This document shows positions 37,224-60,247 of a stretch of DNA of 64,000 nucleotides, in pieces (position 1 is the stretch's first letter; each line of letters starts with the position of its first letter). Position numbers and translations under genes: made by a program. Source of the DNA: Bacteroidales bacterium (GTDB taxonomy: Bacteria > Bacteroidota > Bacteroidia > Bacteroidales > UBA3824); the NCBI GenBank assembly GCA_017417315.1, contig JAFPZK010000075.1, positions 2,582 through 66,581 of the forward strand. Direction: 5' to 3'. The notes beneath the pieces are model-generated. The model did no database searches. It worked only from the letters and a program-made list of their open reading frames with translations, and was not told the DNA's origin.

Positions 37224-38363
37224 TTAGTTCATTGGTGGTGGAGGGGGCGGAGGAACTGCACCGAAAAGTTGCGAAAGTTCTTGAACCGTACTTGCCGGAG
37301 CCCAACCTGCCATACCTTGTTTCCAAACCTGAGTTTGAGGCGTAAACTGTCCTTGCGCTGCCATTTGCTGCAAAGTATTCATATCAAAAGGACCTTGTTG
37401 TTGTCCGTTAACTGCCAAATAATACACCGATGTCTGCAACGGAGGAGGCATTGAACCTGTTTGTTGCTGATACTGAGGTTGCTGATAACGCTGCTGATTC
37501 ATCATATTCTGTTGATTCATCATATTTTGCATCATCATCATACCCATCATACCTTCCATTCCGCCGCCACCGCCTTGATTTGCGGCTGCCTCTTTCATAG
37601 CATCTGCCTGCATTTTCTGCGAATAAACATCAACTCCGCCCAAACCTTGAAGATGTGTTCTCTCTTCAAGTACTTTGTCAAGCGACTCAGGAAGATTGAT
37701 GTTAGAAACAAGCAATTTTGTAAATGTGATACCGTATTCAGGAAATTCCTCATTAATACGTTTTTCACATATCTGACTCAAATCCTTGTAATTGCTTGCA
37801 AGGTCAAGGAAAGGTCTACCGCTTTCGCCGATAGAATCAATCAAGTTTGTGGAAATCACGCTGCGAAGTTCTTCTACGCAATCGTCAGTCTTATAAATAG
37901 CCGAATTTGCACAGAGTTTCTTCACAAAGTTACCCGGGTCGGTTACCTGCCAAGAATAAGTACCAAATGCACCTATTTGAACCTGACCGAAATCTTTGTC
38001 CCTAATCCATACTTTACCCGGAGTACCCCATTTTTGCGCGATGAAAACCGTGGTGTTGATGAAAAGGATTTCACATTTAAAAGGACTGTCAAATCCGTAT
38101 TTCCAACTTTTTAAAGTTGTGGTAATAGGCATATTCTGAGTTGTCAACTCATAATGTCCGGGCTGAAAAATATCACCGATTTCACCCTCGTTCAAGAACA
38201 CGGCAACCTGACCTTCATTTACCGTAAGCTGCGCGCCGTTTTTAATTGCGCTGTCTTTCCTTTCAAAGCGTTTCATAACAATATCCTTTCCGAAAGTCGG
38301 GCAATAGATATTATCTATGAGTTCGCCTTTGATGAACTCCTTTGCTATATCAAACAATCCCAT
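37224..38363 (-). CDS. SPFH-like (virion-core/YdjI-like) domain - Q/N/M-rich linker - GYF_2 domain protein
   Basis: N-terminus MGLFD...VNEGQVAVF.... Linker GGGGGMEGMMGMMMMQNMMNQQNMMNQQRYQQPQYQQQ. C-terminus YYLAVNGQQQGPF...WKQGMAGWAP and PPPPPPPMN. Confidence 0.7.
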   Translation of the reverse strand: MGLFDIAKEFIKGELIDNIYCPTFGKDIVMKRFERKDSAIKNGAQLTVNEGQVAVFLNEGEIGDIFQPGHYELTTQNMPITTTLKSWKYGFDSPFKCEILFINTTVFIAQKWGTPGKVWIRDKDFGQVQIGAFGTYSWQVTDPGNFVKKLCANSAIYKTDDCVEELRSVISTNLIDSIGESGRPFLDLASNYKDLSQICEKRINEEFPEYGITFTKLLVSNINLPESLDKVLEERTHLQGLGGVDVYSQKMQADAMKEAAANQGGGGGMEGMMGMMMMQNMMNQQNMMNQQRYQQPQYQQQTGSMPPPLQTSVYYLAVNGQQQGPFDMNTLQQMAAQGQFTPQTQVWKQGMAGWAPASTVQELSQLFGAVPPPPPPPMN

Positions 38364-38497: not shown

Positions 38498-38505
38498 TAA
38501 TTTTG
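38498..38505 (+). promoter_or_regulatory. -7 box TAATTTTG, candidate promoter of the six-gene operon
   Basis: 21 nt upstream of ATG 38527. The track start at 38503 is a TTG inside the box. Confidence 0.45.
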
Positions 38506-38526
38506 AGGAAAATTATTAAACAAATT

Positions 38527-39648
38527 ATGACACAAAATTCTGAAAATAAAGATATTAACAAATCGGAAAGAGTAAAAACCGTTGTCAAGTATTTCTTTTG
38601 GGATATAGTTTTGATGACTATTTTGATTATCAACTTTATCCTTTTGATTTGGGATTGGTGTTATTCGATAGAACTTGTCAACAATTTTTTTATTGAAAAT
38701 TTTCCGGCATTTTCCGCTGTATACGACGACATTCACGCCAACATAAAACTCATTGACTTGACGTTTGTTGCAATATATTTGACGGATTTTATCGTAGGTT
38801 GGATAATTTCGGTTGTAAAACACAAAGAAAAAAAATATAGTTACCCGCTAACACATTGGTACGATTTGTTAGGCTGTATTCCCTCGGGCAGTCTTATTTT
38901 TTTAAGACTTTTGAGGGTTGTTTCCATCATAATCCGTCTTCATAAAAAACGCCTTATAAATGTAGGCAAATGGTCTATCGTAAAAAAAGGTATCACCATT
39001 TATAATATAGTGATGGAAGAGATTTCTGACCGCGTAGTCTTGAATATTTTGAACGGTATACGGCAAAATATAAGTATGGGAACGCCGGTTTCAAAATTGA
39101 TTTTTTCGCAGATAATAGAGCCTCAAAAGCAAAAAATAATTGACATAGTTTTTGAAAAATTCAACACCGTGTCAAATTTGGAATACGCTGCCTACAAAGA
39201 CGAAATTGCAAGTTACGTAAAAGCAAAAACCAAAGAGGCAATTTCATCAAACAAAGAAGTTTCGCTTTTGACGAAAATGCCGGTTGTAGGTTCGCAAATA
39301 AAAGGCACGCTCGAGAAGTCGGTTTCAGGCACTATAACGGGCGTAATTGACAATATAGCAGGCGATTTGCTTTCTGACACCGGTCAGGAAAAACTTAAAA
39401 ACATATCGACGGAAATCACGGATTCGGTCACAAAAGATTTGGAAAAAGACCTCCGTCCCGTGATAACCGACATTATTTTGGCGACGGTTGACATTATTGC
39501 CAAAACAGCAAACGTTAAGCAGTGGAAACTGTCAAACATAGAAAACCAAATAATGAACGCCAAAAATTCTCCTTATCCTAACGAAGAGAAAATCAAGGCG
39601 TTAGAAGAAAAATACAATCAATTACTGATTGAAGGATTTTTTAAATAA
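38527..39648 (+). CDS. Membrane protein with ion-transport/voltage-sensor-like helix and long helical C-terminal region
   Basis: TM helices plus the S4-like segment LIFLRLLRVVSIIIRLHKKR. About 200 aa helical tail. 9 nt upstream of the PqqD-like gene. Confidence 0.5.
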   Translation: MTQNSENKDINKSERVKTVVKYFFWDIVLMTILIINFILLIWDWCYSIELVNNFFIENFPAFSAVYDDIHANIKLIDLTFVAIYLTDFIVGWIISVVKHKEKKYSYPLTHWYDLLGCIPSGSLIFLRLLRVVSIIIRLHKKRLINVGKWSIVKKGITIYNIVMEEISDRVVLNILNGIRQNISMGTPVSKLIFSQIIEPQKQKIIDIVFEKFNTVSNLEYAAYKDEIASYVKAKTKEAISSNKEVSLLTKMPVVGSQIKGTLEKSVSGTITGVIDNIAGDLLSDTGQEKLKNISTEITDSVTKDLEKDLRPVITDIILATVDIIAKTANVKQWKLSNIENQIMNAKNSPYPNEEKIKALEEKYNQLLIEGFFK

Positions 39649-39657
39649 TATTATACA

Positions 39658-39927
39658 ATGAAACTTAAAAAAGGATTTGTAGTGCGCGAAGTATGCGCTC
39701 AAAAAGTAATCGTGGCAGAAGGTCTCGAAGCCGTAGATTTCGGCAAACTTCTCAGCCTAAACGACTCAGCCGCTTTTGTGTGGCAACTCGCTGAAAAACA
39801 GGGAGATTTCACGGTAGAAAGTCTTGCTTCGGCTTTTTGTAAAGAGTATGAAACAGACGAAAAAACCGCTCAAAACGATGTCAAAGAACTTTTAGAAAAA
39901 TGGCAAAAACTCGGCGTTATTGAATGA
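39658..39927 (+). CDS. PqqD-family peptide chaperone (RiPP recognition element)
   Basis: 89 aa. Beta-rich N-terminus then LSLNDSAAFVWQL...TVESL...EYETDEKTAQNDVKELLEKWQKLGVI, the usual PqqD/RRE pattern. Confidence 0.8.
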   Translation: MKLKKGFVVREVCAQKVIVAEGLEAVDFGKLLSLNDSAAFVWQLAEKQGDFTVESLASAFCKEYETDEKTAQNDVKELLEKWQKLGVIE

Positions 39928-41546
39928 AATATTTTTCGTGGTTTCTGTCAAGTACTTCGGGCATAAGACTGAATATTTTTGTAAGAATAATTGCGGGACT
40001 TTTGCAGGCGGCAATCGGCTTGCAAGTAGTTTGGCTCAGCAAAAAGTTTATCGACATTGTAATAGTTGAAGGCTCTGACGATGATATTTTTAGGACTGCA
40101 TGCCGGCTATTCGGCGGAATAACGGCTGCGGTTTTGTTAAGACAACTTTACTATTATATGACCGTCAAAGCCGGAACGGTGCAGTCTAACTGCATACGTA
40201 AAAATATTTTCGGGAAACTTTTTTCTACACCGCTTTATAACAATCAAACTTTACATTCAGGCGATGTTGCTTCACGTCTTGCAAAGGATATTGAACTTGT
40301 CAGCGAAGTTTCAACGGATATTTTGCCGCAAATAACGATTATCGGCGCAGAACTTATCGGTGCATTTCTTCTGATGAGATATTTTGATGCGCGGTTAGCG
40401 TGGCTTTTAGTTTTGATAACACCCGTTACGGCAGCATTAGGAAAATTTATCTCATTCAAACTCAGAGCGTTAACTCACGGCATAAGAGCGGAAGAAAGTA
40501 AAATTCAAATGCAGGTTCAAGAAAGTATCGAACAAAATGCCGTTTTGAGGTCGTTGTGTTGTCAAAATTTTATGACAAAAACGCTTGACACACTACAAAA
40601 CGGTTTGCGGGCGTTAGTCTTGAAAAGAACACGTTTTATGGTGATAATCAGAGTGTTAATCGGTCTGACGTTTTCGCTCGGCTATATGACGGCTTTTGTT
40701 TGGGGCGGTTTGCAGTTGAAATCAGGAGCGATAACTTTCGGCACGATGACTTCGTTTTTGCAACTTGTGGGACTGATTCAAAGTCCTATTTTAACACTTC
40801 TGAATTATTTCCCGAAAGTGGTTCAGGCGACGGCAAGCATCGACCGCTTGGAACAAATGAATGTTTCTTCCGATGAAGTTTCCGAAACCAAAGATTTAAA
40901 AAATTCACCGCTCGGCATTGAGTTTAAAAACGTCAGTTTTAAATATTCGGATAACGGCGGTTTGGTTTTGAACAAATTTTCGCATAATTTTACGCCGAAA
41001 TCCAAGACGGCAATCACGGGCAGAACGGGTATCGGAAAAACGACTTTGTTTCGTTTGATGTTGTCGTTTATCAGGCCCGAAAGCGGAGAAATCATGGTTT
41101 ATAACGATGAAGAAAATTTGCCCGTAAATGAAAATTTGCGGAATAATTTTGTTTTTGTTCCGCAGGGTAACACTTTGATTAGCGGTACTTTACGTTACAA
41201 CCTTCAACTTGCCGACCCGGAAGCGGACGATGAAAAACTAAAAAAAGTTCTTCATACAGCATGTGCGGATTTTGTGTTCTCAATGCCTAATTGTCTTGAC
41301 ACAAAGTTAAGCGAACACGGCGGCGGGTTGAGTGAAGGTCAGGCTCAGAGAATAGCAATTGCGCGGGGTTTGTTACGACCGGGGAAAATTTTTCTGCTCG
41401 ACGAAATCACGTCAGCACTTGACGAAGAAACTGAAAAAGAACTTTACAAACGGTTGTTTAAAGAATACCCCGACAAAACGATGATTTTTATCACGCACAG
41501 ACCGTCAGTGAGCGATATGTGCGAATTTAAAATACATTTAGAATAA
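39924..41546 (+). CDS. ABC exporter, fused permease + ATPase (no C39 peptidase domain)
   Basis: 6-TM ABC_membrane region. GRTGIGKTT Walker A, LSEGQAQR signature variant, FLLDEITSALD Walker B, ITHR H-loop. Confidence 0.9.
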   Translation: MKYFSWFLSSTSGIRLNIFVRIIAGLLQAAIGLQVVWLSKKFIDIVIVEGSDDDIFRTACRLFGGITAAVLLRQLYYYMTVKAGTVQSNCIRKNIFGKLFSTPLYNNQTLHSGDVASRLAKDIELVSEVSTDILPQITIIGAELIGAFLLMRYFDARLAWLLVLITPVTAALGKFISFKLRALTHGIRAEESKIQMQVQESIEQNAVLRSLCCQNFMTKTLDTLQNGLRALVLKRTRFMVIIRVLIGLTFSLGYMTAFVWGGLQLKSGAITFGTMTSFLQLVGLIQSPILTLLNYFPKVVQATASIDRLEQMNVSSDEVSETKDLKNSPLGIEFKNVSFKYSDNGGLVLNKFSHNFTPKSKTAITGRTGIGKTTLFRLMLSFIRPESGEIMVYNDEENLPVNENLRNNFVFVPQGNTLISGTLRYNLQLADPEADDEKLKKVLHTACADFVFSMPNCLDTKLSEHGGGLSEGQAQRIAIARGLLRPGKIFLLDEITSALDEETEKELYKRLFKEYPDKTMIFITHRPSVSDMCEFKIHLE

Positions 41547-42664
41547 TGGAACACTTTTTTTCACTTTTGAGATTTTCACTTTCGATAACTGACAGTTTTG
41601 ACGAAAAATTGTCGGACAAAGAATGGCTTGAAATTTTTAAAGCCGCTCATAGTCAAGCACTTGTCGGCGTGATTTTTTGCGGCGTACAAAAACTTAAAAA
41701 AGAACTCGCCCCGCCGTTTACCCTGATGATGCAATGGGCGGCAGAGGCGGAAAAAATACACGGCTTAAACAAACTTTTTTACGCTGAAAGTCAACGTCTT
41801 ACAGACCTTTTTACGGCAAACGGCAGAAAGTCCGTCATCTTGAAAGGTCAGGCAAATTCGCGACTTTATCCCGATAAATTTTGTCGTCAACCCGGCGACA
41901 TTGACATCTACGTTGAAGGCGGAAAAGAAAGTGTCATCTACCTTATTGACAAGTTAGGAATGTTGCCTAAGGACTTGCCCGAAGGTGCATTTAATGCTTA
42001 TCATCACGTGCATTTGCCCGAAAACGAAAAAGGCGTAAGCGTAGAAGTCCATTTCAGACCCTCGTCAGGATTCTATAACAGCATTTATAACAACAGGTTA
42101 CAAAATTATCTTGACGAAAATTTAAAAGACATAATCTTTACGGAAGAAGGTTTTAATGTCCCCGATATGAAATTTGCACTTTTGATGCAATTGGCTCATC
42201 TTCAAAGGCATTTTCTTATGGAAGGTGTTGGTTTACGGCAAGTTACGGATTATTATTTCTTGCTGAAAAAAGCCTCGAAAGAAGACAGAGAATATGTGTC
42301 GGGGCTGCTGTCAAAACTAAATATAAAACGCTTCACGAAAGCATTGATGTGGATTTTGAACAAGATTTTTCTCTTGGAAAAAGATTTTATGCTTTGCGAA
42401 ATGAGCGAAAAACAAGGCAAAAAAGTTATGGAAGAAATCATCGTCGGCGGCAATTTCGGCTGGTGGAGCAAAACTCCAAACCCGACTGCATGGAGACGTT
42501 TTTACGAACGAAGAAGACGCAGTTGGAAAATGTTTACATTCAATCCGTTAGAAATGTGGCCGCACGAAATGGGATATTGGAAATGTTTCTTTAAAAATAT
42601 GCCTAAACGTATCCGCTACCGTACATTATCATTAGAAACCATAAAAAAAGATGAAAACCACTGA
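41546..42664 (+). CDS. Uncharacterised nucleotidyltransferase (PF14907/NTP_transf_5-like)
   Basis: 372 aa. ILKGQANSRLYP...PGDIDIYV minimal-NTase motif and overall resemblance to the family seen in RiPP and capsule loci. Confidence 0.65.
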   Translation: MEHFFSLLRFSLSITDSFDEKLSDKEWLEIFKAAHSQALVGVIFCGVQKLKKELAPPFTLMMQWAAEAEKIHGLNKLFYAESQRLTDLFTANGRKSVILKGQANSRLYPDKFCRQPGDIDIYVEGGKESVIYLIDKLGMLPKDLPEGAFNAYHHVHLPENEKGVSVEVHFRPSSGFYNSIYNNRLQNYLDENLKDIIFTEEGFNVPDMKFALLMQLAHLQRHFLMEGVGLRQVTDYYFLLKKASKEDREYVSGLLSKLNIKRFTKALMWILNKIFLLEKDFMLCEMSEKQGKKVMEEIIVGGNFGWWSKTPNPTAWRRFYERRRRSWKMFTFNPLEMWPHEMGYWKCFFKNMPKRIRYRTLSLETIKKDENH

Positions 42665-43499
42665 ATATTACAAAGTTGCGGAACACGTTTTTAGTGTTTC
42701 AGCAGAAAGTTTTTTTGACAATTATAAGCCGTTTTTGACGGAAAAAGTCTCAAAACCGCTATTTTCGTTAGAGATTTTCAACGAAAGTTTTTCGGCGAAT
42801 TTCACCGAAGAAATCTCTCAGGAAGAAGAAGGTCAGAGGATAGTTTGCGGACATACGGAAGAGGGAAAATCCGTTTTTGAGTTTTGGCTCGAAAACAAAA
42901 AAGCAGGCGTTTTAATTTCGCAATCAGACTTTCAGAACAACGTTTTGTATGTAGAAAAAGGTTTTGAAAAATTTTCTACCGACAACGCTCTGATGATAGT
43001 TTTTGCGCTTTCAACGGCTTCAAAATCAACACTTTTGTTTCATTCGTCAGTGATTGCTTACGGCGGCAAAGGTTATATGTTTTTGGGTAAAAGCGGTACG
43101 GGAAAAAGCACACATTCAAGACTTTGGCTTCAAAACGTTTTGGGCGCAAGGCTGTTAAACGATGATAACCCGGTAGTAAGAATTTTTTCGGAAGAGATAA
43201 AAGTTTTCGGCTCACCGTGGAGCGGCAAAACAAATTGCTACAAAAACGAAGAATTACCTCTTGGCGGAATAGTACTTTTAAGTCAGGCTAAATATAACAA
43301 AATCAGCGAATTAAAAGGCATTCAAGCATACGCTGCGCTTATTCCGTCGATTTCAGGAAAACGTTGGGACAAGGTTTTGGCTGACAATCTTCACAAAAGC
43401 GAAACCGTCATCATAGAAAAAATAAAAATGTGGCATCTTGAATGTCTGCCTGACAACAACGCCGCTATTTTATGCAAAAACACAATATCATGCAACTAA
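42651..43499 (+). CDS. HPr-kinase-C-like P-loop kinase (HprK-related)
   Basis: 282 aa. LFHSSVIAYGGKGYMFLGKSGTGKSTHS P-loop and NDDNPVV downstream, as in HprK-related kinases of peptide-modification loci. Confidence 0.65.
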   Translation: MKTTEYYKVAEHVFSVSAESFFDNYKPFLTEKVSKPLFSLEIFNESFSANFTEEISQEEEGQRIVCGHTEEGKSVFEFWLENKKAGVLISQSDFQNNVLYVEKGFEKFSTDNALMIVFALSTASKSTLLFHSSVIAYGGKGYMFLGKSGTGKSTHSRLWLQNVLGARLLNDDNPVVRIFSEEIKVFGSPWSGKTNCYKNEELPLGGIVLLSQAKYNKISELKGIQAYAALIPSISGKRWDKVLADNLHKSETVIIEKIKMWHLECLPDNNAAILCKNTISCN

Positions 43500-43918
43500 G
43501 CAACGATTTTATAATGTCAGAGGCCTTGCGTTTGGTAGACGAAGGTCGGGACGTGATTTTTCCCGTCAAAGGTAATTCTATGCTGCCTTTTATTATCGGT
43601 GGCAAAGAAAAAGCCGTATTTTCGCCGGTGAAAAAAATAAAAACAGGCAGGGTTGTTTTAGCATACGTTGACGGTTGCCGTTATGTTGTTCACCGTATCA
43701 TAAAGATTGATAACAAGAAAGTTACGCTTATGGGCGACGGCAATCTCAAAGGTCGTGAATACTGCACGCTTACGGACATAAAAGCCGAAGTCAATTATGT
43801 TGTTGACCAAAACGAAAAAAAACGCTGTCTGAACACCTTTTGGAGGCTTTCAGCAGCGTTATTATGGCGTATTTTAAGACCTGTAAGACGGTATTTATTG
43901 AGGCTTACGTCCCTCTAA
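43472..43918 (+). CDS. S24/S26-family Ser-Lys peptidase
   Basis: 148 aa. VKGNSMLPFI (nucleophile Ser), VVHRIIKI (general-base Lys) and LMGDGN box. No N-terminal HTH. Confidence 0.7.
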   Translation: MQKHNIMQLSNDFIMSEALRLVDEGRDVIFPVKGNSMLPFIIGGKEKAVFSPVKKIKTGRVVLAYVDGCRYVVHRIIKIDNKKVTLMGDGNLKGREYCTLTDIKAEVNYVVDQNEKKRCLNTFWRLSAALLWRILRPVRRYLLRLTSL

Positions 43919-45910
43919 TGCAGCCTGATATTCAAACATTTGGTCGCGAAGTTGAGCCGCCGTAATGAAGTCAAGTTTTTTTGCCGCCTTTTCCATTTCG
44001 GCTTTGGTCTGCTTGACAAGCATTTCCAAATCGCGGACTGAAAGAAAACGAATTTCGTATTCTTCCTCATCTTTATTTTTCGTTTTGACGGTTTTCGCAT
44101 TTTGAGGCTCACCTTCCGATTTTGCCAAAACAAGGTTGTTGTCCTTTTTAATTTGTCTCGGCGTAATGTTGTGGTCTTTGTTATACTGAATCTGAATGTT
44201 TCTGTGCCGCTCTGTTTCTTCAATCGTCGTCTTCATCGAGTCGGTGATTTTGTCGCCGTACATGATGACTTTGCCGTTGATGTTTCGCGCTGCTCTGCCC
44301 GCCGTCTGTGTCAAAGACCGCGCCGAACGCAAAAAGCCTTCTTTGTCAGCATCAAGAATAGCAACCAAAGAAACTTCCGGCAAGTCCAAACCTTCACGCA
44401 AAAGGTTAACACCGACCAAAACGTCAAACAAACCTTTTCTTAAACCGTCCATAATTTCGATTCTCTCCAAGGTCTCAACGTCGCTATGAATATAACGGCA
44501 ACGGACATTCATCTTGTCAAGATATTTTGTCAACTCCTCCGCCATACGCTTTGTAAGAGTTGTAACCATAACCCTCTCGTCCCGCTTTACAACTTCCTGA
44601 ATTTCATTAAGTAAGTCGTCAATTTGATTTTTTGTCGGACGGACGCTAATCGGCGGGTCAAGCAAGCCGGTCGGACGAATCATCTGTTCTACAATCACGC
44701 CGCCGCATTTTTCTAATTCATAATCGGCAGGCGTTGCGCTAAGGTAAATGGTTTGATGCGTTAACTCCTCAAATTCAGCGAATTTCAGCGGACGGTTGTC
44801 CAAAGCCGCCGGCAGACGGAAACCGTATTCCACAAGGTTGACTTTACGACTGCGGTCGCCGCCGAACATCGCATGAATCTGCCCTAACGTTACATGACTT
44901 TCGTCAATGACCGTAATAAAATCGTCAGGAAAATAATCTATCAAACAGAACGGTCGCGTGCCGGGTTTTCTGCCGTCAAAATACCGCGAATAATTTTCAA
45001 TGCCCGAACAGTGTCCGAGTTCCTGCATCATTTCGAGGTCGTTGTTAACGCGGTCTTCTAAACGCTTGGCTTCAAGGTTTTTACCCTCGTCGCGAAGTGC
45101 CTCTAACTGCAAACCTAAATCAATGCGAATATTTTTCATCGCTTCAAACAAAACCTCCTGATTAGTCATAAAAATATTCGCAGGATAAATGATACAGTCG
45201 TCAACTTTGTCAAGACGGTGTCCCGATTCGGGGTCGAAAATAATTATTTCGTCAATTTCATCGTCCCAAAAACGAACCCGATACGCAAAATCATCGTATG
45301 CAACAAAAATGTCAACGGTATCGCCTTTAACTCGAAAATTTCCGCGCTTAAACTCAATTTCGTTGCGGCTGTACATACAATTCGACAAATTCAAGAGAAA
45401 ATCATTACGCTTAATCGTCTGACCAACTTTTAAATGTATGATGTTTGAATGAAAATTTTCAGGATTTCCGATACCGTAAAGACAACTCACCGAACTCACC
45501 ACAATTATATCTCTTCTGCCTGATAATAAGGCTGTTGTAGTGGAAAGTCGGAGTTTTTCGATGTCGTCGTTAATCGCTAAATCCTTCTCTATATAAGTGT
45601 TGGTTGTCGGAATAAAGGCTTCCGGCTGATAATAATCGTAATACGAAACAAAATATTCAACGGCATTGTTCGGAAAAAACGCCTTAAACTCGCCGTAAAG
45701 TTGTGCAGCAAGAGTTTTATTATGACTTAAAACCAAAACGGGACGGTTAAGGTTTTTGATAACGTTAGCCACCGTAAAAGTTTTGCCCGAACCTGTTACG
45801 CCTTTGAGAATCTGATAGTTATCGCCGCGCAAAACGCCTTCCGTAAGTTCTTTTATAGCCTGCGGCTGGTCGCCGGTGGGCGAAAATTGTGAAACTAATT
45901 CAAAATCCAT
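43895..45910 (-). CDS. uvrB: Excinuclease ABC subunit B
   Basis: MDFELVSQFSPTGDQPQAI, GVTGSGKTF, helicase motifs, C-terminal UVR domain. ATG 45910. Confidence 0.95.
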   Translation of the reverse strand: MDFELVSQFSPTGDQPQAIKELTEGVLRGDNYQILKGVTGSGKTFTVANVIKNLNRPVLVLSHNKTLAAQLYGEFKAFFPNNAVEYFVSYYDYYQPEAFIPTTNTYIEKDLAINDDIEKLRLSTTTALLSGRRDIIVVSSVSCLYGIGNPENFHSNIIHLKVGQTIKRNDFLLNLSNCMYSRNEIEFKRGNFRVKGDTVDIFVAYDDFAYRVRFWDDEIDEIIIFDPESGHRLDKVDDCIIYPANIFMTNQEVLFEAMKNIRIDLGLQLEALRDEGKNLEAKRLEDRVNNDLEMMQELGHCSGIENYSRYFDGRKPGTRPFCLIDYFPDDFITVIDESHVTLGQIHAMFGGDRSRKVNLVEYGFRLPAALDNRPLKFAEFEELTHQTIYLSATPADYELEKCGGVIVEQMIRPTGLLDPPISVRPTKNQIDDLLNEIQEVVKRDERVMVTTLTKRMAEELTKYLDKMNVRCRYIHSDVETLERIEIMDGLRKGLFDVLVGVNLLREGLDLPEVSLVAILDADKEGFLRSARSLTQTAGRAARNINGKVIMYGDKITDSMKTTIEETERHRNIQIQYNKDHNITPRQIKKDNNLVLAKSEGEPQNAKTVKTKNKDEEEYEIRFLSVRDLEMLVKQTKAEMEKAAKKLDFITAAQLRDQMFEYQAALEGRKPQ

Positions 45911-46040
45911 CTTTTTTTTGACGGCAAAGTTAACAAATAAATTAGTTTGTGGCATTGTATTTGGGGGAAAATTATTGCAAAAAAACCAAAAATTTGAAAC
46001 AAATTAACATGAAATTTCGTTTATAAAAATATAAAACGAT

Positions 46041-53139: not shown

Positions 53140-54042
53140 ATGTGGTTATATTTTATAATCCTTTCGGCAGTTTTTTTAGGCGTTTACGATATTTGCAAAA
53201 AAACGTCGCTTAAAAAAAATGCCGTTTTGGTAGTAATGTTTCTCTCATCGTCGGTATCGTTAATGATGATGATGCCGGCGTTGTTGGATTCAGTTTTTTC
53301 TTTCGGCTGGTTCGACGGTACGGTTTTCAAAGTGCCGCAAACGTGTTGGAAAGACCAGTTTTATATTATCATTAAAGCGTTTATTGTTCAGGCTTCGTGG
53401 CTGTGCAATTTTTACGCAATGAAACACCTTCCTATTTCAATTGTAGGGCCAGTCAGAAGTTCTGCTCCGGCGTGGACACTTCTTGGCGCAGTGTTGATTT
53501 TAGGGGAAAGACTATCTCTGAATCAATGGATTGGCGCGGTCATAATCCTTTCGTGTTTGTTGTTCTACGCTAACTACGGCAAAAAAGAAGGCATCGAAAT
53601 AAAACACAACAAAAAAGTCTTTCTGCTTATACTCGGCACGTTAATAGGTTCTGCGTCAGCACTTTATGATAAAGTAATTTTGAGAACCCTGCAAATTGAC
53701 AGAATGGAAGTTCAAGCATGGTTTTCTGTTTATCAGTTTTTGTTAGCGTTTTTGATGATGATGATTTTTTGGTATCCTCACAAAGAAAAAACGGACAAAT
53801 TCGAGTTCAGATTTCCTATTTTGCTGATTGGTTTTTTCTTAACGATTGCAGATTTTCTGTACTATTATGGTTTGAGTATGGACGGTGCGTTAATCGGACT
53901 TGTCTCCTTAATCCGCAGAAGTAACGTAATAATTTCGTTCACGGCGGGAGCATTGCTTTTCCACGAAAAAAACATCAAACAAAAAGCGTTTATTTTAGCA
54001 GGAATACTTTTAGGCGTGGCGGTTTTGTGCTTATTCAAATAA
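53140..54042 (+). CDS. EamA/DMT-family transporter
   Basis: 300 aa, about 10 TM helices, two EamA-like halves. Confidence 0.8.
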   Translation: MWLYFIILSAVFLGVYDICKKTSLKKNAVLVVMFLSSSVSLMMMMPALLDSVFSFGWFDGTVFKVPQTCWKDQFYIIIKAFIVQASWLCNFYAMKHLPISIVGPVRSSAPAWTLLGAVLILGERLSLNQWIGAVIILSCLLFYANYGKKEGIEIKHNKKVFLLILGTLIGSASALYDKVILRTLQIDRMEVQAWFSVYQFLLAFLMMMIFWYPHKEKTDKFEFRFPILLIGFFLTIADFLYYYGLSMDGALIGLVSLIRRSNVIISFTAGALLFHEKNIKQKAFILAGILLGVAVLCLFK

Positions 54043-55314
54043 GCACTTTTCTTCCGCCGTCATTTTCTGAGCGTAAGTATAAAAATTTTCGCAGTCATGT
54101 TTTACATTTACGCCGATGATATGGATAGTACCGCCAACACCATTTAACGTTTTCGGCTTCAACGTTGCACCTTCAAGTGGGACGATGAAGCCGCCAACGT
54201 TATAATCCAAAATGTGCATATAGGTTATAACTTGATATAAATCAGCAGTTTGAACATTTTTCCATTCCAAATACCATTTATATTTTGCGTCAAGAACTAT
54301 TTTTTCGTCCTCATTATAAAAGTCAGGATAACAATAGCCTGAATTATCCGTAAATAAATGTTTACGTCCTTTCCCCGTCTTATTTTCAGGATGCTTGAAT
54401 CCCAACGGCTTCAACACCGTGTTGAGATACTCCTCCCACAGCCACGCACCGTCAAACAATATTCCGTAAACCTGATCCTTTTCCTGTCCGAATTTTAGAT
54501 TCTCATGCCTTAAAACTTTTAAGCACAGACTTTGCAACGCCGTATATTCCCAAAAATAAGGATGACGGACGAGACGAAGATTTTGGCTTATAATCCTCTG
54601 ACGTTCAAAAACATTGTAACTCTGTGTGGCGGCAATTATTTGCGAAACGCCTGACTTGGTTTCTTGGTCGTTGTTCAGAATACAACTGCCCGCAGGCTTG
54701 GTCTTGATATATTCGATGGTATGACGAACAAGTTGCGTGAGATGATTGTCATAACTATGCTGACGAGTATTGTAAGCCACCGTCCCGCAGAAAGGAATGT
54801 TCTGACGGATATGACGGCTGACATCAATCACGCCCCTAAGATTCGCATCATTATGCTCAAAACGTTGGTACTTTTTGAATAATCCCTGCGCCAACGCCTT
54901 CTTCAAAAAATACGGAAACAAATACAGCAAAAACTCAAAAATCTGTTCTTGGTTGGACGTGTGCTTTATGTCAAACAGATTGATAGCGAACACTTTCTGC
55001 AACATATAATGCAGGAAATAATCCCTGCCGTCGTCCTTGGCAAACCTCGACCTGATGTCCAACTGCGTTTCGTTGACACCCACAAAACCCATAATATTCC
55101 CCGTCGAAATCTTGTCGCCGTCGAGGGAAATGATTGATTGTTCGCTTATCTTGTCGCCATACTGATTCAAATCACGCGGAAAAACGAGCAAGTTTGGGTT
55201 GTCGTCCAACTTCAAATTCTTGATTTTGACGTCGGCGATTTTTTTGAGGTTCTGTAAGTCAGTCTCGGAATTAATTTGCTTGTTGCTGTTATCCGTTGTT
55301 GTTATCTGACTCAT
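54031..55314 (-). CDS. mcrC: McrC-like nuclease subunit of a type IV restriction system
   Basis: 427 aa. C-terminal PD-(D/E)xK-like PDFY...VLDAKYK. Overlaps mcrB by 26 nt. Confidence 0.75.
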   Translation of the reverse strand: MSQITTTDNSNKQINSETDLQNLKKIADVKIKNLKLDDNPNLLVFPRDLNQYGDKISEQSIISLDGDKISTGNIMGFVGVNETQLDIRSRFAKDDGRDYFLHYMLQKVFAINLFDIKHTSNQEQIFEFLLYLFPYFLKKALAQGLFKKYQRFEHNDANLRGVIDVSRHIRQNIPFCGTVAYNTRQHSYDNHLTQLVRHTIEYIKTKPAGSCILNNDQETKSGVSQIIAATQSYNVFERQRIISQNLRLVRHPYFWEYTALQSLCLKVLRHENLKFGQEKDQVYGILFDGAWLWEEYLNTVLKPLGFKHPENKTGKGRKHLFTDNSGYCYPDFYNEDEKIVLDAKYKWYLEWKNVQTADLYQVITYMHILDYNVGGFIVPLEGATLKPKTLNGVGGTIHIIGVNVKHDCENFYTYAQKMTAEEKCLFE

Positions 55315-56845
55315 TGTCGTATGCCTTTTTTAGTTCTGCGATTTTGGTTTCAACGTCCGACATTCCGCGCAAGTATTCGCGCAAAAGTCCTTCGAGATGA
55401 TAATTCCAAAGGTCGTCAAAACTATTGTACAGTTCATATTTCTTGAAATACGCCGCGCCAATCTGATAAGCCTTGCCAAGCCCCTCAACTTTTAGAATTT
55501 GGGCGTTGAGGTTTCTCATACGTTTTTTGAGAATGTCGGCATTTGGCAATCCATCAAGCATTTGCATCGAATCCTCCGCCGTAACTTCCTTCCAAGCAAA
55601 ACGCCTCCGCATTGCGAAATCCATACTCTCAACACTACGGTCGATGTCGTTCATTGTGCCGATGATATAGACGTTTTCGGGGACGAAAAAACCTTTCTTA
55701 AACGTGTCGCCATCCTCGATAATATTCTGATACTGAGTTTGTACAATACCTGCCTTGCCCCGATAGCCCGGGTCAATCGAGAAAAACAACTCACCAAAGA
55801 TTTTCGAAATCTCGCCACGGTTGATTTCATCGATGATAAAGACGAAAGGCTTATTAAGATTGTTTAGAGCAGTAGCGCAAAATCTTTTAAACACTCCGTC
55901 TTTACGTTCAAAGCCGACATTACCATTATCATCTTGCATTGGTCGCAATCCTTCTACGAAGTCCGAATAATCATACGACGGGTGAAATTGAACAAAACCA
56001 ATTTCATTGTCAGTGCAGCCCATCGATTTTGCAATCTCTTTTGCAAGATAGGTCTTTCCTGTGCCGGGTGCGCCGGTGAGGATGAGGTTGTGGGTCTTTT
56101 CGAGAAGAGTTTTATATTTTTGATAGTTTGTTGACATAGTTTTATATTTTGAGAGTTCGTGAGGAAAATGCTCTAAAAGTTCCCAACAAATATCTTGTGC
56201 AAGTAACAAATCGCTTTGCAATAAACCGTTAATTGGACTATTGATAATAATAGAATGAAGTTCACTATCTTTTTTTATCAATTGAACTAACGGTTCTATC
56301 AATGAAAGATAATGTTGATATTTTTTACCAGTTTTTTCAGGAAGTATTCTTAAATAATCACAAAGTTTTTGATACACCTTGTCTTTGTAAAGTGTATATT
56401 TTTGTGGCTTAAAACACGTGAGAATAGTTGCGGCAGTACGTTCATCATTTGCTTTACTTTTAAAATTAGTACCTTGTAACATTTCTGACATAGATACTTT
56501 GAATCCCATCAATCTGTCGTTCAGCGGATACGATTCGTTAATCAAATTATTGAGAACACTTTCTAATTCTTTTGCTTTATTATTTGCGAGATATTTTAAT
56601 ACAGCATTGTCATGTATTGCATCAATTAGATTCACAAAACCACCTTTTTCCGCTTTTGTTGGATTGCTATTATGCGTACAAACTATTTCAAAAGGGGTTT
56701 TGTTTTGACAAACGGTTATCAGTTGCCATTTATAAATTTCGTATGCGTTCTTATCGTCAAATGCAACCGTCTGACGATGTTTTTTATATGCTTCAAGTAA
56801 TTTTTTGTATAATTCGTTCATTTTAATCATAGATATAATTTTCAC
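55289..56845 (-). CDS. mcrB: McrB-like AAA+ GTPase subunit with an unassigned N-terminal domain of about 230 aa
   Basis: LILTGAPGTGKTY, FVFIIDEINRGEISKIFGE, IIGTMNDIDRS and RRRF motifs. Confidence 0.85.
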   Translation of the reverse strand: MKIISMIKMNELYKKLLEAYKKHRQTVAFDDKNAYEIYKWQLITVCQNKTPFEIVCTHNSNPTKAEKGGFVNLIDAIHDNAVLKYLANNKAKELESVLNNLINESYPLNDRLMGFKVSMSEMLQGTNFKSKANDERTAATILTCFKPQKYTLYKDKVYQKLCDYLRILPEKTGKKYQHYLSLIEPLVQLIKKDSELHSIIINSPINGLLQSDLLLAQDICWELLEHFPHELSKYKTMSTNYQKYKTLLEKTHNLILTGAPGTGKTYLAKEIAKSMGCTDNEIGFVQFHPSYDYSDFVEGLRPMQDDNGNVGFERKDGVFKRFCATALNNLNKPFVFIIDEINRGEISKIFGELFFSIDPGYRGKAGIVQTQYQNIIEDGDTFKKGFFVPENVYIIGTMNDIDRSVESMDFAMRRRFAWKEVTAEDSMQMLDGLPNADILKKRMRNLNAQILKVEGLGKAYQIGAAYFKKYELYNSFDDLWNYHLEGLLREYLRGMSDVETKIAELKKAYDNESDNNNG

Positions 56846-56902
56846 ACCACCTCGCCGTACTCAAAAATCGCATCGCTCGGCAAATCTACAAGGTCGTTCC
56901 AA

Positions 56903-57397
56903 TTACACCAACTCCTCACTCCATCCGTGTCCCAAATCCCAATGGATGTCGATTACAAAAACAAAATCTTCGGGAAGATTGAATTCATCTTCAATAAGAT
57001 AGCGGAAACTTGTCACGTCGGGCAAATCCTCAACCCAATGACCTAGATAAACTTGATACTTGCCGGAGGCTTCGTCCAAAAAGATTCTGCCGCGTGGTAT
57101 CATTGTATAGTTGTGTTCTTTATAAAAAATTGACTCTCTGTTATTTTCTCTTACGGCACGATGATGCTGTTTCTGCCAATATGTCTTGTGCAACTTCCCG
57201 ATAGTGGCCTTGCCGTTGATAAACGGTGTCTTGTCGGAATCAATTTTTTCTATTCCGAAAAGGCTTTGCGTTTTGGTGTCGTACCAAAAAATGCCTACCT
57301 GAGGATTACCGCTGTCCATAAAGCCTATCATTGCAGAGCAAATGTCTTTGTGCTCTTGCTCGTCAGTGTGATTAAAACCGTTGTTGTCTATGGTCAT
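56903..57397 (-). CDS. Hypothetical 164-aa protein directly upstream of mcrB
   Basis: Long ORF on the same strand, with a 57-nt gap to mcrB and TATTTTTG boxes upstream. I recognise no family. Confidence 0.5.
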   Translation of the reverse strand: MTIDNNGFNHTDEQEHKDICSAMIGFMDSGNPQVGIFWYDTKTQSLFGIEKIDSDKTPFINGKATIGKLHKTYWQKQHHRAVRENNRESIFYKEHNYTMIPRGRIFLDEASGKYQVYLGHWVEDLPDVTSFRYLIEDEFNLPEDFVFVIDIHWDLGHGWSEELV

Positions 57398-57466
57398 TGT
57401 CTTTTACGCCTTAATTATTCTATCCGCAAAAATACAAAAATATTTTTAATTTCAACAAAAAAACAT

Positions 57467-57474
57467 TACATTTG
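57467..57474 (+). promoter_or_regulatory. -7 box TACATTTG
   Basis: 21 nt upstream of ATG 57496. The track start at 57472 is a TTG inside the box. Confidence 0.45.
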
Positions 57475-57495
57475 CGCAAACAAATCAACAAGGCT

Positions 57496-59058
57496 ATGGC
57501 AGCACCGCACAAATATCCCACAGGCAGGGCAGATTTTGAGTCAATCATCAACGAGGGGTTCGTCTATGTGGACAAGACCGAGCGTATGTACGAGATGATT
57601 GGCGATAGGAAGTTTGTGTTCCTTTCACGCCCGCGACGTTTCGGTAAATCATTGTTGGTAAACACTTTACGCGCATATTTCGAGGGAAAGAAAGATCTTT
57701 TCAAAGGTCTGAAAATATACGATATAGAAAAGGATTGGATACAATATCCCGTGATTCAACTTGATATGTCTTCGTACAAAGATATGTCGCCTGAGAAAAT
57801 GGAAACGGCTATCGCTGATGATATTTACAAGATGGAAACAAAGTATTCCATCGTTCCTAATGAAAAACTCAGCAATGGTGCTCGTTTCAAAAATCTTATC
57901 GGAACTGCAAAGGCTGTCACCGGCAAAAACACCGTGGTTCTCATTGACGAATATGACGCGCCGCTAAATGCTCACCTTTACGACGGCAAACTCAAAGAGG
58001 TAAAGCCAAAACTTCAAGAGATTTTTCAACAACTCAAAGTCTGCGAAAAAGACGAGCGGTTTGTGTTCATCACGGGCATTTCAAAATTTTCGCAGGTATC
58101 GATATTTTCTACCATCAACAACCTCGAAAAACTCTCGATGGTGGAAGATTATTCCGACATCTGCGGCATCACAAAAGACGAACTTTTGAGTTATTTCAAA
58201 GAGGACATCAATCTTTTGGCGCAAAAGTATAGTTGCAGTTTCGACCAAATGGTTGAAATGTTAAAATATCAGTTTGACGGCTATCATTTCAGCGAAAATT
58301 CGCCTGATATGTTTAATCCGACAAGCATTTTAACCACTTTCAAAGAGAAGAAACTCAACAATCATTGGTTCGGAACGGCAACTTCGTCGTATATCATCGA
58401 CCATTTGAAACGACACAACGCCGACATCAAAAATCTTGTCCCGAAAAGCCTTTTTTCTGACGATTTTGACGTTTCGCCCGAGGACTACGACAGTCTGTGG
58501 CCGATTCTTTATCAGGCGGGCTATCTGACCATCAAGGATTACGACCCGAAGTGGAATACATACGTTTTGGACTATCCCAACAATGAAGTCCGCGTGGGAT
58601 TGATGCAAAATATGATGACATACTATTTTCCAAGAAACATTTCGTCGGGCAAAATGTCGATGAAACAGTTTTATGCCGCATTGGAAAATTTGCAGGTTGA
58701 CGAGGCGATGACATACCTAAAAGATTTTTTGTCAGAAATACCAAACATTCTCAACAACAAGGAGGAAAAGCATTTTCAGACAATACTTTACGTGATGTTC
58801 ACGTGGCTCGGATTCTATACCGAAGCCGAGGTCAATACAGCCGTTGGGCGCACCGATGTCGTAATCAAAAACACCAAAAACATCTTTGTCTTGGAATTGA
58901 AAGTGGACGGCTCGGCAGAGGATGCGCTGTTGCAAATCAATTCAAAAAACTATTCTATTCCGTATAAATACGACGGTCGCGAGGTTGTAAAAATAGGTGC
59001 AAATATCTCAACCGAGAATAATGTCAGGACAATAACGGATTGGAAGGTGGAGAGGTAA
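57496..59058 (+). CDS. AAA-ATPase-like domain + PD-(D/E)xK (PDDEXK_9/DUF1703-type) protein
   Basis: YPTGRADFESIINEGFVYVDKT, FLSRPRRFGKSL, VVLIDEYD, and a C-terminal GRTDVVIK...VLELKVD nuclease-like motif. Confidence 0.8.
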   Translation: MAAPHKYPTGRADFESIINEGFVYVDKTERMYEMIGDRKFVFLSRPRRFGKSLLVNTLRAYFEGKKDLFKGLKIYDIEKDWIQYPVIQLDMSSYKDMSPEKMETAIADDIYKMETKYSIVPNEKLSNGARFKNLIGTAKAVTGKNTVVLIDEYDAPLNAHLYDGKLKEVKPKLQEIFQQLKVCEKDERFVFITGISKFSQVSIFSTINNLEKLSMVEDYSDICGITKDELLSYFKEDINLLAQKYSCSFDQMVEMLKYQFDGYHFSENSPDMFNPTSILTTFKEKKLNNHWFGTATSSYIIDHLKRHNADIKNLVPKSLFSDDFDVSPEDYDSLWPILYQAGYLTIKDYDPKWNTYVLDYPNNEVRVGLMQNMMTYYFPRNISSGKMSMKQFYAALENLQVDEAMTYLKDFLSEIPNILNNKEEKHFQTILYVMFTWLGFYTEAEVNTAVGRTDVVIKNTKNIFVLELKVDGSAEDALLQINSKNYSIPYKYDGREVVKIGANISTENNVRTITDWKVER

Positions 59059-59096
59059 AATAGTAGTAATTTTTCAAATAAATAATGAAGTGAATT

Positions 59097-59339
59097 ATGG
59101 AAACTATATTCGATTTCAATCCGACAGATGAAGAACTCAACCGCTTCGGAGGTCGTGAATGTTATGAAGAAGGGAAAAAGAAAGGTCTTGATATAACAAA
59201 TCCAATTTGGTCTGATGCAAATTATTATCAGATTGGGGTCTTATTGTCTATGCGAGGAGATAACACCACGGCTGATATGTATTTTTCAAAAATAAAAGAT
59301 AAAGGAATATTAAGAAATTTATGGCAAGATTGTCCTTAG
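59097..59339 (+). CDS. Hypothetical 80-aa protein
   Basis: ORF only. 38 nt after the preceding gene. No family recognised. Confidence 0.35.
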   Translation: METIFDFNPTDEELNRFGGRECYEEGKKKGLDITNPIWSDANYYQIGVLLSMRGDNTTADMYFSKIKDKGILRNLWQDCP

Positions 59340-59584
59340 ACCATCGTAACTTTTGCCAAATTCTGCGTTATGTCTGTATGTAAATGCCATAATGATAGTA
59401 TTTTATTCCTGCCTCCTGCGGTATTCACGGGAAGGGGGGTGACAATTTGTCCCCACCCTTTGGCAAGTTGCGTGTCGCGACTTTTCATCTTTTTGATGTA
59501 GTCGGTTGGATTTTTGCTGTCGGTCAACACTTCTACCACGTCAACAACAGCAAAATACCACTTTTCTTTCTCATCGTCCCACAC
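59336..59584 (-). pseudogene. Fragment of a Bro-N/RhuM-like DNA-binding protein
   Basis: (K)VRTVWDDEKEKWYFAVVDVVEVLTDSKNPTDYIKKMK matches the N-terminal pattern of this family. There is no ATG (the in-frame upstream run ends at a stop after 6 codons) and the C-terminus is truncated and divergent. Confidence 0.5.
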
Positions 59585-59698
59585 AGTGCGGACTTTCTTT
59601 TCTTCAAATATCTGTAATGATGATTTTTAGGGCATAGTTTTTAACGTATTTTTTAGATGCAAATTTATAAAAATCCTTTGCTACTCACAAGGCATTTT

Positions 59699-60247
59699 TT
59701 ACAAGTTTTTTACAGCGTCCCTTACTTCCATGAGCGTAAAGCCGAGGTTGTTTTCGCCTTTCCAAAGGTTGGGATTTTGAGAATCTGTGTTTTCACGGTT
59801 AAGACCTATGCCCCAAACCTTATCTACAGGAGATGCTTCCACCAAAACGGCATCTCCCGTAGAAAGTAAAAAGTCTTTCAGTTTTGGATTTTGCGAAAAT
59901 TTGGCAAGATTGCCTTCAAAAACTATGCGGCATTTATTTTTGTTCCAAACCGCTGAATCAAAACCCCTTACTTCTTTGCCAAGTTCTTTAAAAGTTTTCG
60001 GGTCGTGGGCTTTCATAATTTCGTCGTAAATAGTTTTATCACCGAAAAGTACCGCTTTTTGAGCCATCATATATTGTTCGGTGGTATAATATTTTGTGCC
60101 GCCGACATAAAAAGTGCAGTCGTACCAATTACTCAAACACGATTTCGTAACTTTTCCGGGGTCTTCGTAATTCTCCCAAAACATTACATAATTGATTTTT
60201 TCACCGTTATTAAAACGGTCGATGAGTTGTTGTAAATTGTATTTCAT
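59699..60247 (-). CDS. NADAR (YbiA/DUF1768) family protein
   Basis: 182 aa. LSNWY...F...YTTEQYMMAQKA...VLVEASPVDKVWGIGL...NLLGFTLMEVR pattern. Confidence 0.8.
   Translation of the reverse strand: MKYNLQQLIDRFNNGEKINYVMFWENYEDPGKVTKSCLSNWYDCTFYVGGTKYYTTEQYMMAQKAVLFGDKTIYDEIMKAHDPKTFKELGKEVRGFDSAVWNKNKCRIVFEGNLAKFSQNPKLKDFLLSTGDAVLVEASPVDKVWGIGLNRENTDSQNPNLWKGENNLGFTLMEVRDAVKNL

Follow-up and report, generated by a model that had tools for sequence, protein, structure and literature searches.

Gene content of the locus

Between positions 38498 and 43918, the 64,000-nucleotide stretch of Bacteroidales DNA analysed here (the window; contig JAFPZK010000075.1) carries six plus-strand open reading frames (ORFs), g1 to g6, the last five of which resemble the machinery for a peptide that is made on the ribosome and then post-translationally modified (RiPP). 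A preliminary description, made from the sequence, had read all six as one RiPP-like operon of a type not yet characterised, with neither core enzyme nor precursor. The ORF listing places the genes at the coordinates given there and confirms their junctions, the upstream promoter box and the quoted motifs (Table 1). Our analysis leads to a different reading of the whole: g2–g6 (39658-43918) quite likely form a self-contained maturation and export module of the linear polyphosphorylated peptide (LPP) type, which is served by a remote precursor and has been inserted beside the gene for an unrelated membrane protein, g1.

LPP clusters were defined by Popov et al. (Nat Commun 2026;17:6633, PMC13381572, May 2026), with the lppA-K-B-S-D-N cluster of Paenibacillus alginolyticus DSM5050. 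Their conserved genes encode a SipW-type peptidase resembling signal peptidase I (SpI; LppS), a discrete RiPP recognition element (RRE; LppB), an HprK-like kinase (LppK), an NTP-transferase (LppN), and an MsbA-like exporter (LppD) (PMC13381572). The domain table of that study lists PqqD (151), NTP_transf_5 (140), TIGR02228 (126), and TIGR02203 (99), and an “HprK kinase” category composed of TIGR04249 (67), TIGR04352 (65), and TIGR04355 (11) (PMC13381572). The same five signature components are present in the window, where g2, g3, g4, g5, and g6 match PqqD, TIGR02203, PF14907, TIGR04249/04352/04355, and TIGR02228, respectively. The architecture is therefore not of an uncharacterised type, having already been defined and partly characterised as LPP.

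Consecutive genes are separated by 9 nt or overlap, and the stop codon of g6 (43918) lies inside the convergent uvrB gene, identified by profile matches to the UvrB_inter, UvrB, and UVR domains. The Bacteroidota-type -7 box TAATTTTG precedes g1. Since TAnnTTTG is enriched in the window (105 matches vs 72.6 +/- 8.3 expected from shuffles), the box is persuasive only because of its intergenic position directly ahead of the ATG. The ORF finder starts g1 at TTG 38503; this codon overlaps the box, making ATG 38527 the likelier start. A motif scan finds no further plus-strand TAnnTTTG between 38782 and 39658, upstream of g2, so g2–g6 are probably transcribed by read-through, and TAATTTTG is probably the promoter of g1 and, by this route, of the five genes behind it. 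An Rfam scan of the whole 64-kb window returned no RNA family, and a search for sigma-70 promoters and terminators was uninformative, this being a Bacteroidota genome.

Table 1. Coordinates of the features described in the text. Positions preceded by an L number belong to comparison loci; all others are window positions.
Feature	Coordinates	Strand	Remarks
-7 promoter box, Bacteroidota type, TAATTTTG	38498-38505	+	intergenic, 22 nt upstream of g1 ATG
g1, ion-transporter-like membrane protein	38527-39648	+	373 aa from ATG 38527
g1-g2 junction	g1 end 39648, g2 start 39658	+	9-nt gap
g2, discrete PqqD-type RRE, LppB-like	39658-39927	+	89 aa; PF05402 E=1.4e-16
g2-g3 junction	g2 end 39927, g3 start 39924	+	4-nt overlap
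g3, MsbA-like half-transporter ABC exporter, LppD-like	39924-41546	+	540 aa; ABC_membrane 8e-30, ABC_tran 7.5e-22
g3-g4 junction	g3 end and g4 start 41546	+	1-nt overlap
g4, NTP_transf_5 nucleotidyltransferase, LppN-like	41546-42664	+	372 aa; PF14907 E=2.4e-40; GDIDIYV
g4-g5 junction	g4 end 42664, g5 start 42651	+	14-nt overlap
g5, HprK/PEPCK-fold P-loop kinase-like protein, ScmC / HprK-related-A type, LppK-like	42651-43499	+	282 aa
g5-g6 junction	g5 end 43499, g6 start 43472	+	28-nt overlap
g6, SipW/archaeal-type signal-peptidase-I-like leader peptidase (predicted), LppS-like	43472-43918	+	148 aa; PF00717 2.2e-6, TIGR02228 2.6e-5
uvrB	43895-45955	-	convergent
Band_7/SPFH protein with C-terminal GYF domain	37224-38363	-	low-complexity linker
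Defence / RNA-repair-like island	54031-62374 and beyond		continues into L096
SIR2 gene of the island	60602-61303		
TROVE/Ro60-vWA gene of the island	61283-62374	-	
Candidate cognate precursor	L095 13452-13636	+	61 aa; all conserved positions in register
Lipoprotein gene	L095 13656-14822		388 aa
CAACG tandem repeat	L095 13276-13320		about 8 copies
Hairpin	L095 ~13367-13405		after the repeat
91-aa gene and PIN-domain toxin-antitoxin pair	L090 8202-8884		between ABC exporter and nucleotidyltransferase genes
Large-protein genes before peptide genes	L009 4846-8469; L013 986-4585; L020 5571-8621; L033 171-4025; L043 4511-8329; L071 2928-8558; L088 8108-9988		others exist
Large-protein gene before a peptide gene	L005 14893-19749	-	
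Cluster headed by a peptide gene	L086 10001-17440		also in L087

Predicted leader recognition, modification, and cleavage proteins

The nearest NCBIfam models of g2 are lasso-peptide PqqD chaperones, with weak matches to PqqD_rel_X and ScmD. Searches against the PDB yield weak matches only, to TbiB1 (E=0.04) and LppB (E=0.14), which served for residue mapping alone. In this mapping Asn35, Tyr64, Glu65, and Asp74 of g2 align with Asn33, Tyr60, Glu61, and Asp70 of LppB (PDB 9x8z_B), and Asn35, Trp42, and Asp74 are invariant in 69 family members. The residues that correspond to the leader-Tyr-binding Asp and the Pro-kink Asn of the LPP system are thereby retained, and g2 is a predicted YxxP-leader-binding RRE. 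Among published RREs its best matches fall in cluster 4 of the sequence similarity network (SSN; E=1e-17 to 1e-19), with LppB at E=2e-5.

The g5 protein matches TIGR04249 (ScmC; E=9.3e-6, 25.2 bits with a curated cut-off of 125), TIGR04352 (HprK-related A; 8.6e-5, 22 bits with a cut-off of 200), and TIGR04355 (0.011) in NCBIfam. It falls below threshold for both PF07475 (Hpr_kinase_C; E=0.098, 12.6 vs 33.3 bits) and TIGR00679 (E=0.025, 13.8 vs 240 bits). Foldseek matches the AlphaFold2 model of g5 (pLDDT 94.7, pTM 0.91) to ATP-dependent phosphoenolpyruvate carboxykinases (PEPCKs; E about 5e-6) and, at E about 1e-4, to the HPr kinase/phosphatase catalytic domain (3tqf, 1jb1, 1kkl). This predicted fold supports the reading of g5 as a P-loop kinase structurally, though not as HprK/P proper. 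Four motifs are invariant in the g5 family: GKSGTGKSTH, NDDNP, PWSGKT, and SGKRW. An identity as HPr kinase/phosphorylase proper was rejected on the two sub-threshold models; what the two proteins share is limited to fold and P-loop region. The likeness to LppK runs through common profile models, which g5 matches in the order known from LPP kinases. By analogy with the LPP clusters, g5 is presumed to be the class-defining modifying enzyme, since an HprK-like kinase defines that class; the operon is to this extent not without a core enzyme, as had been supposed. Profile searches support the domains originally assigned to all five genes g2–g6, with the kinase assignment leaning on TIGR04249/TIGR04352 and the predicted fold because PF07475 stays below threshold.

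Leader cleavage had been attributed to an S24/S26-type enzyme with a Ser-Lys mechanism. The first part of this proposal fits our results: g6 aligns with the LppS family and keeps its catalytic triad, consistent with a predicted role as leader peptidase. Ser36, His74, and Asp89, which correspond to LppS Ser29, His68, and Asp93, show at least 95% conservation across 70 homologs, whereas Lys78, the lysine of HRIIK, is not among the positions conserved at this level. The Ser-Lys mechanism is therefore wrong for g6, which is of the Ser/His/Asp type. For the same reasons we dropped an identification as a LexA/UmuD-type S24 or bacterial S26 Ser-Lys enzyme. The protein is predicted to be cytoplasmic and has a C-terminal amphipathic helix; the GNSMLP and HRIIK motifs are present. 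It shares the GxSMxP...HR...GD signature (Ser/His/Asp) and the S24/S26 fold family with SipW and archaeal/ER-type signal peptidase I (TIGR02228), but it lacks their N-terminal membrane anchor and signal-peptide substrate context, being short, cytoplasmic, and encoded together with an RRE. Compared with published SpI peptidases, it scores best against SSN cluster 4 (E=2e-15); cluster 1 is reached at about 1e-6 (up to 0.9). Only two Bacteroidota peptidases occur in that published dataset, in SSN cluster 8 and fused to ABC transporters, and they were not analysed (PMC13381572).

The remaining two components are an ATP-binding cassette (ABC) exporter and a nucleotidyltransferase (NTase). TIGR02203 (MsbA) is the top NCBIfam match of g3 (6.8e-67), and a profile search finds no C39 peptidase domain in it. 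The PF14907 NTase, g4 in the window, adjoins the module in 27 of the 84 related loci described below, mostly directly upstream of the kinase gene, and is an accessory, optional component in the Bacteroidota/Fibrobacter clade.

Conservation of the module and the position of g1

Databases hold more than 7,460 relatives of g5 from Bacteroidales, Prevotella, and Fibrobacter. With each species represented by a single genome, the module was located in at least 595 genomes. The best 80 loci were examined; as labelled, they comprise 42 Prevotella/Prevotellaceae, 20 other Bacteroidales/Bacteroidia, 16 Fibrobacter, and two Clostridia bins. For synteny, the six proteins of the window were searched against the ORFs of 85 loci, and counts are given over the 84 related ones. 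Gene order in these is near-invariant, [NTase]-kinase-peptidase-RRE-ABC, and the window has these genes in circularly permuted order (RRE, ABC, NTase, kinase, peptidase). The flanking genes are unrelated housekeeping genes that differ between loci. Even the closest relative, L090 (kinase 84% identical), has the permuted order of the window but is flanked by PorV and gyrB. The co-occurrence in related genomes that the preliminary description had set as a check is borne out for g2–g6, the NTase being there in roughly a third of loci, and orthologous loci lack the lasso cyclase and the B2 protease.

De novo clustering of all ORFs lying up to 6 kb from the module in 81 non-redundant loci reveals no additional enzyme family that recurs, and no cyclase, B2, radical SAM, or YcaO protein. 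Profile searches likewise find no cyclase, B2, or radical SAM protein among g1–g6 or the flanking genes. The lack of lasso cyclase, B2, radical SAM, YcaO, and Lan enzymes noted earlier for the operon holds, and none of them recurs near related modules.

Some loci depart from the common arrangement. No peptidase gene is detectable between the kinase gene and the RRE/ABC gene in L048, L055, L073, L074, and L080, and in L083 and L084 the peptidase gene lies upstream on the opposite strand, showing that the module is not entirely rigid. In L090 a 91-aa gene and a PIN-domain toxin-antitoxin pair sit between the ABC exporter and NTase genes. L078 and L081, from bins labelled Clostridia (Subdoligranulum and Vescimonas), contain full, Bacteroidota-like modules with 43–47% identity to g5, which reflect either mis-binning or horizontal transfer; L078 also encodes an LRR_5 surface protein and a peptide.

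The first gene of the window stands apart. g1 has no match in Pfam or NCBIfam; its family gives 96 database matches, part of them named “ion transporter”, and it is missing at all 84 related module loci and at L090. Its homologs in L093 and L094 are solitary and lie beside a Band_7/GYF gene and cdaA, with no module nearby. As the Band_7/GYF gene beside these solitary homologs is also the one that adjoins g1 in the window, g1 is an ancestral neighbour alongside which the five-gene unit was inserted. g1 is a bystander, probably co-transcribed with the module, and not, as had been proposed, a partner in the system. The neighbouring minus-strand gene encodes a Band_7/SPFH protein whose C-terminal domain is GYF and whose low-complexity linker abounds in Met, Gln, Asn, and Pro, and the synteny of this gene with g1 homologs is kept in distant relatives (L093).

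A precursor family and a remote candidate substrate

Small ORFs around the module cluster into a peptide family of 36–60 aa, with 35 ORFs in 26 loci. In at least 15 loci the peptide genes share the strand of the module and lie 7–330 nt upstream of it, at times in two or three tandem copies. The family consensus is MKKxYxxPx[ML]xVxE...LLxxS, followed by a variable core. Seven representative peptides match no family in NCBIfam or Pfam. A profile search of 5.8 billion proteins finds at least 423 called members, none of which has a name or a Pfam domain.

Residue frequencies were determined for 154 unique sequences, with positions counted from the conserved Tyr (position 0). The leader carries Lys at -3 (100%) and -2 (96%), Tyr at 0 (98%), Pro at +3 (98%), Met or Leu at +5 (95%), Val at +7 (86%), Glu at +9 (83%), Leu or Ile at +16 (92%), and Ser at +19 or +20 (93%). 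Conservation collapses past this junction Ser. Asp, Glu, Gly, and Pro are abundant in the cores, which in many cases finish with ...D/E-K-H-L-A; HLA is C-terminal in 50 of the 154 peptides.

Neither the precursor-family profile, run over all six frames (best 5.4 bits, E about 3), nor a strict search detects a precursor within the window, and the negative profile search extends the earlier “no precursor” statement to all 64 kb. The suggestion that the precursor is encoded elsewhere proved apt. L095, a contig 99.99% identical over 10.7 kb that extends the window past its left edge, shows that the same organism encodes a candidate cognate precursor, MDKNQIQSVVIDVTTKKKYVKPYFEVIELNMEAPLLSASGNPTGVNGQATQGVQLFGGSWD, which in window coordinates falls near -2.7 kb on the minus strand, ~42.4 kb from g2. 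The peptide contains KKKYVKPYFEVIELNMEAPLLSASG and has an unusually long N-terminal extension (MDKNQIQSVVIDVTT) ahead of its KKKY motif. It scores 22.2 bits, above the 10.0-bit ceiling of 63,776 background six-frame segments, and as a single query it retrieves 71 of 155 family members at E<1e-3. A lipoprotein gene begins 20 nt downstream. About 130 nt upstream of the precursor ATG lies a pentanucleotide tandem repeat (CAACG, about 8x), followed by a strong hairpin; slipped-strand phase variation may operate at this element, or the site may just be a terminator region.

L096, which extends the right edge of the window, contains no precursor, and none is found within 10 kb of the module in L090 or L091. 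Among the 54 loci with at least 3 kb on each side of the module, 18 have a peptide within 3 kb. An “orphan” operon is thus the norm for this system, and the leader profile can locate a substrate tens of kilobases away.

Coupling of peptide genes to large surface-protein genes

In 17 loci the peptide gene directly follows a gene for a large secreted protein of 500–1,900 aa, and its ATG lies 2–5 codons past the large-protein stop, often in frame, or overlaps it. The large proteins are adhesin-like and carry differing repeats (Flg_new / Listeria-Bacteroides, BspA-type LRR_5, MBG), and they have in common a C-terminal domain of ~250 aa, ...STIVLPFSI...GGxFYEF...ANTPYIV...LTF..., without a Pfam match. 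DUF7601 was rejected as this shared domain, as in L088 it maps to the middle of the protein. The C-terminus of the L020 protein, the single example inspected by eye, has a tail like that of type IX secretion system (T9SS) substrates. A peptide gene immediately follows 25 of the 31 ORFs that bear the C-terminal domain, and pairs of large protein and peptide also occur far from any module (L086-L089). The domain has no match in the window.

A peptide with the same leader (P0175) heads a different cluster in L086, and also in L087. Besides a second small ORF, this cluster has genes for a 284-aa protein that matches nothing in Pfam, for two ABC transporters, and for OEP/TolC-like and HlyD-like proteins; no kinase, RRE, or peptidase gene is present in it. 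The arrangement suggests an alternative, type-I-secretion-like route for this peptide family.

Relation to LPP and other RiPP systems

In P. alginolyticus LPP biosynthesis, LppK places one to four phosphates on Ser3 of the core in B. subtilis, and LppS (S29/H68/D93) cuts after T-1 solely with LppB present, processing unphosphorylated precursor poorly (PMC13381572). LppN showed no detectable activity in the heterologous system (PMC13381572). The precursor motif is YxxPxVLxHQxIxFETxxS, which includes Ser3 of the core (PMC13381572). Both precursor types start MKKxYxxPx-hydrophobic and have a Ser ~18–20 residues past the Tyr, followed by a variable core. Like the system described here, LPP clusters lack a cyclase and a B2 protease, their precursors can be encoded elsewhere in the genome, and their peptidase has the Ser/His/Asp triad retained in g6.

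The two systems also differ. LPPs were found in 80 of 9,173 Bacilli genomes and called restricted to Bacillota (PMC13381572), whereas the clade of the window belongs to Bacteroidota and Fibrobacterota, hosts with two membranes. The second half of the leader reads VxE...LLxxS here instead of VLxHQxIxFETxxS, with the Ser at +19/+20 instead of +18. Our clade further has a different gene order, an NTase in only about a third of loci, and frequent coupling of peptide genes to genes for large surface proteins. A profile comparison of the precursor family with 11 published Bacillota LPP precursors gave E=0.35–1.5 against decoys, which is not significant; the likeness is one of motifs, and homology of the precursors is therefore not claimed.

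Other RiPP clusters have parts of this machinery in common. Paeninodin/pseudomycoidin lasso clusters of Bacillota also contain a discrete PqqD RRE for a [Y/W]xxPx-hydrophobic leader, a precursor-phosphorylating HprK-like kinase, a PF14907 NTase, and an ABC exporter, but they have a cyclase and B2, where the present module has a SipW-like serine peptidase and a presumably linear product. An HprK-like protein is also paired with a PqqD chaperone in SynChlorMet (ScmC TIGR04249, ScmD PqqD-like, ScmE/F radical SAM) and in Haft's HPr-rel-A (TIGR04352/TIGR04353). These differ in that g5 scores far below their cut-offs and in that peptidase, exporter, and NTase take the place of radical SAM/SPASM proteins. 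A SynChlorMet cassette was rejected for the window on the ScmC score and the lack of radical SAM proteins in the operon, its flanks, and related loci. In the literature on PF14907, ScmC/SynChlorMet, and RiPP mining in Bacteroidales and rumen bacteria, we found no description of this module or clade.

A proposed pathway and its alternatives

On the LPP model, the g2 RRE would bind the MKKxYxxPx[M/L] leader as an added β-strand, with Asp74 hydrogen-bonding the leader Tyr and Asn35 fixing the Pro kink. g5 would phosphorylate, probably repeatedly, the near-invariant Ser 19–20 residues past the Tyr, at the leader/core junction, and the g4 NTase may decorate the phosphate further. With the substrate presented by the RRE, g6 would remove the leader, and g3 would export the modified, linear peptide through the inner membrane. 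That phosphorylation occurs, where it and the cleavage fall, and in what order the steps run we infer from the P. alginolyticus system. What the comparisons themselves show are the domain and fold identities, the conserved catalytic and leader-binding residues, the conservation of the module, and the existence of a linked precursor family, and the evidence from domains, fold, catalytic residues, and linkage is strong. Peptide phosphorylation followed by export was also among the chemistries suggested in the preliminary description, and the LPP analogy lends it support.

Several points weigh against an LPP-type module. g5 stays far under the curated cut-offs of every named kinase model, including that of ScmC, whose function is undemonstrated. 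By search E-values, g6 and g2 are nearer to SSN cluster 4 (Dehalobacter, Anaerocolumna), an unstudied group, than to cluster 1, the characterised one. The precursor family resembles Bacillota LPP precursors at the motif level only and is without HQxIxFET. Polyphosphorylation and RRE-dependent leader cleavage have been demonstrated for P. alginolyticus only (PMC13381572). About two thirds of loci, that of the window included, lack a precursor within 10 kb, and a single inner-membrane ABC exporter leaves passage across the outer membrane unexplained.

Part of this evidence would also suit an LPP-like architecture with other chemistry, in which g5 adenylylates the peptide, phosphorylates it once elsewhere in the core, or activates it for the NTase, so that the products form a different RiPP class. 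The weak similarity of g5 to any named model, ScmC among them, is compatible with this, as are a peptidase and RRE outside the characterised LPP clade and a precursor motif that diverges past the YxxP box; many cores, moreover, have a second conserved element, [FY]x[YL][IVA]P[GTS]...D/E-D/E-K-H-L-A, with no counterpart in Bacillota LPPs. Yet the “HprK kinase” category of genuine LPPs rests on the same TIGR04249/TIGR04352 matches, g5 has the HprK/PEPCK fold, and the leader/core junction Ser is near-invariant, as in LppA, and we regard a change of chemistry as unlikely. The module might instead be no natural-product pathway but have a housekeeping function in cell-surface biogenesis, as a processing and export system that acts on or with the large surface proteins, with the peptides as partners or signals and not as end products. 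Its position amid housekeeping genes in most genomes and the 25 of 31 C-terminal-domain ORFs directly before a peptide gene point that way; SipW is a specialized signal peptidase of Bacilli, and a possible link of LPPs to capsule or biofilm formation has been raised (PMC13381572). We nevertheless give little credence to this explanation, as RiPPs typically have this RRE/leader/peptidase logic and such hypervariable cores, roughly half of the peptide-bearing loci have no large-protein gene, and the L095 precursor follows no such protein.

Two further explanations fare worse against the related loci. A common strand, the 9-nt g1–g2 gap, and the lack of a consensus -7 box before g2 make co-transcription of g1 and g2 likely, and would favour one functional system of all six genes, with the voltage-sensor-like g1 included. 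This is contradicted by the non-conservation of g1, which occurs at no other module locus, not even 84%-identical L090, and whose solitary homologs retain synteny with the Band_7/GYF gene; a six-gene system is accordingly most improbable. Decay of a lasso cluster through loss of the cyclase and B2 would account for the HprK-like kinase, PF14907 NTase, PqqD RRE, and ABC exporter, a set typical of paeninodin-type clusters, and for the lasso PqqD chaperones as nearest NCBIfam models of g2. This explanation is effectively refuted: cyclase or B2 occurs in 0 of 84 related loci, strong conservation of all five proteins extends over at least 595 species and their catalytic motifs are intact, B2 has its place taken by a dedicated peptidase of a different type, and stand-alone LPP clusters are already established (PMC13381572).

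The five-gene LPP-type reading of g2–g6 extends this machinery beyond Bacillota and brings in another RRE/peptidase clade, a precursor family that is new, and an association with surface proteins. At least 595 species genomes are concerned, compared with the Bacillota-only view of the sole LPP study, and the 80 loci examined come mainly from Prevotella, other Bacteroidales, and Fibrobacter, taxa that are dominant in the gut and rumen. The conserved junction Ser offers a directly testable modification site, and the surface-protein coupling hints at function. More speculatively, the Bacteroidota/Fibrobacterota clade may be a distinct, very widespread sister family of LPPs whose precursor genes are translationally coupled to those of adhesin-like proteins, and whose peptides in gut and rumen bacteria are tied to the cell surface as partner, anchor, or signal of these proteins and are not free antibiotics; we offer this tentatively and hold it to be somewhat doubtful.

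Other features of the window

A defence-system reading of g1–g6 was dropped, as PADLOC gave generic ABC-ATPase matches only. A defence / RNA-repair-like island does lie towards the right end of the window and continues into L096. Within the window it includes McrBC-like, AAA-ATPase/PDDEXK_9, NADAR, SIR2, and TROVE/Ro60-vWA genes; just past the right edge, L096 adds SLFN/AlbA_2, WYL, and RtcB.

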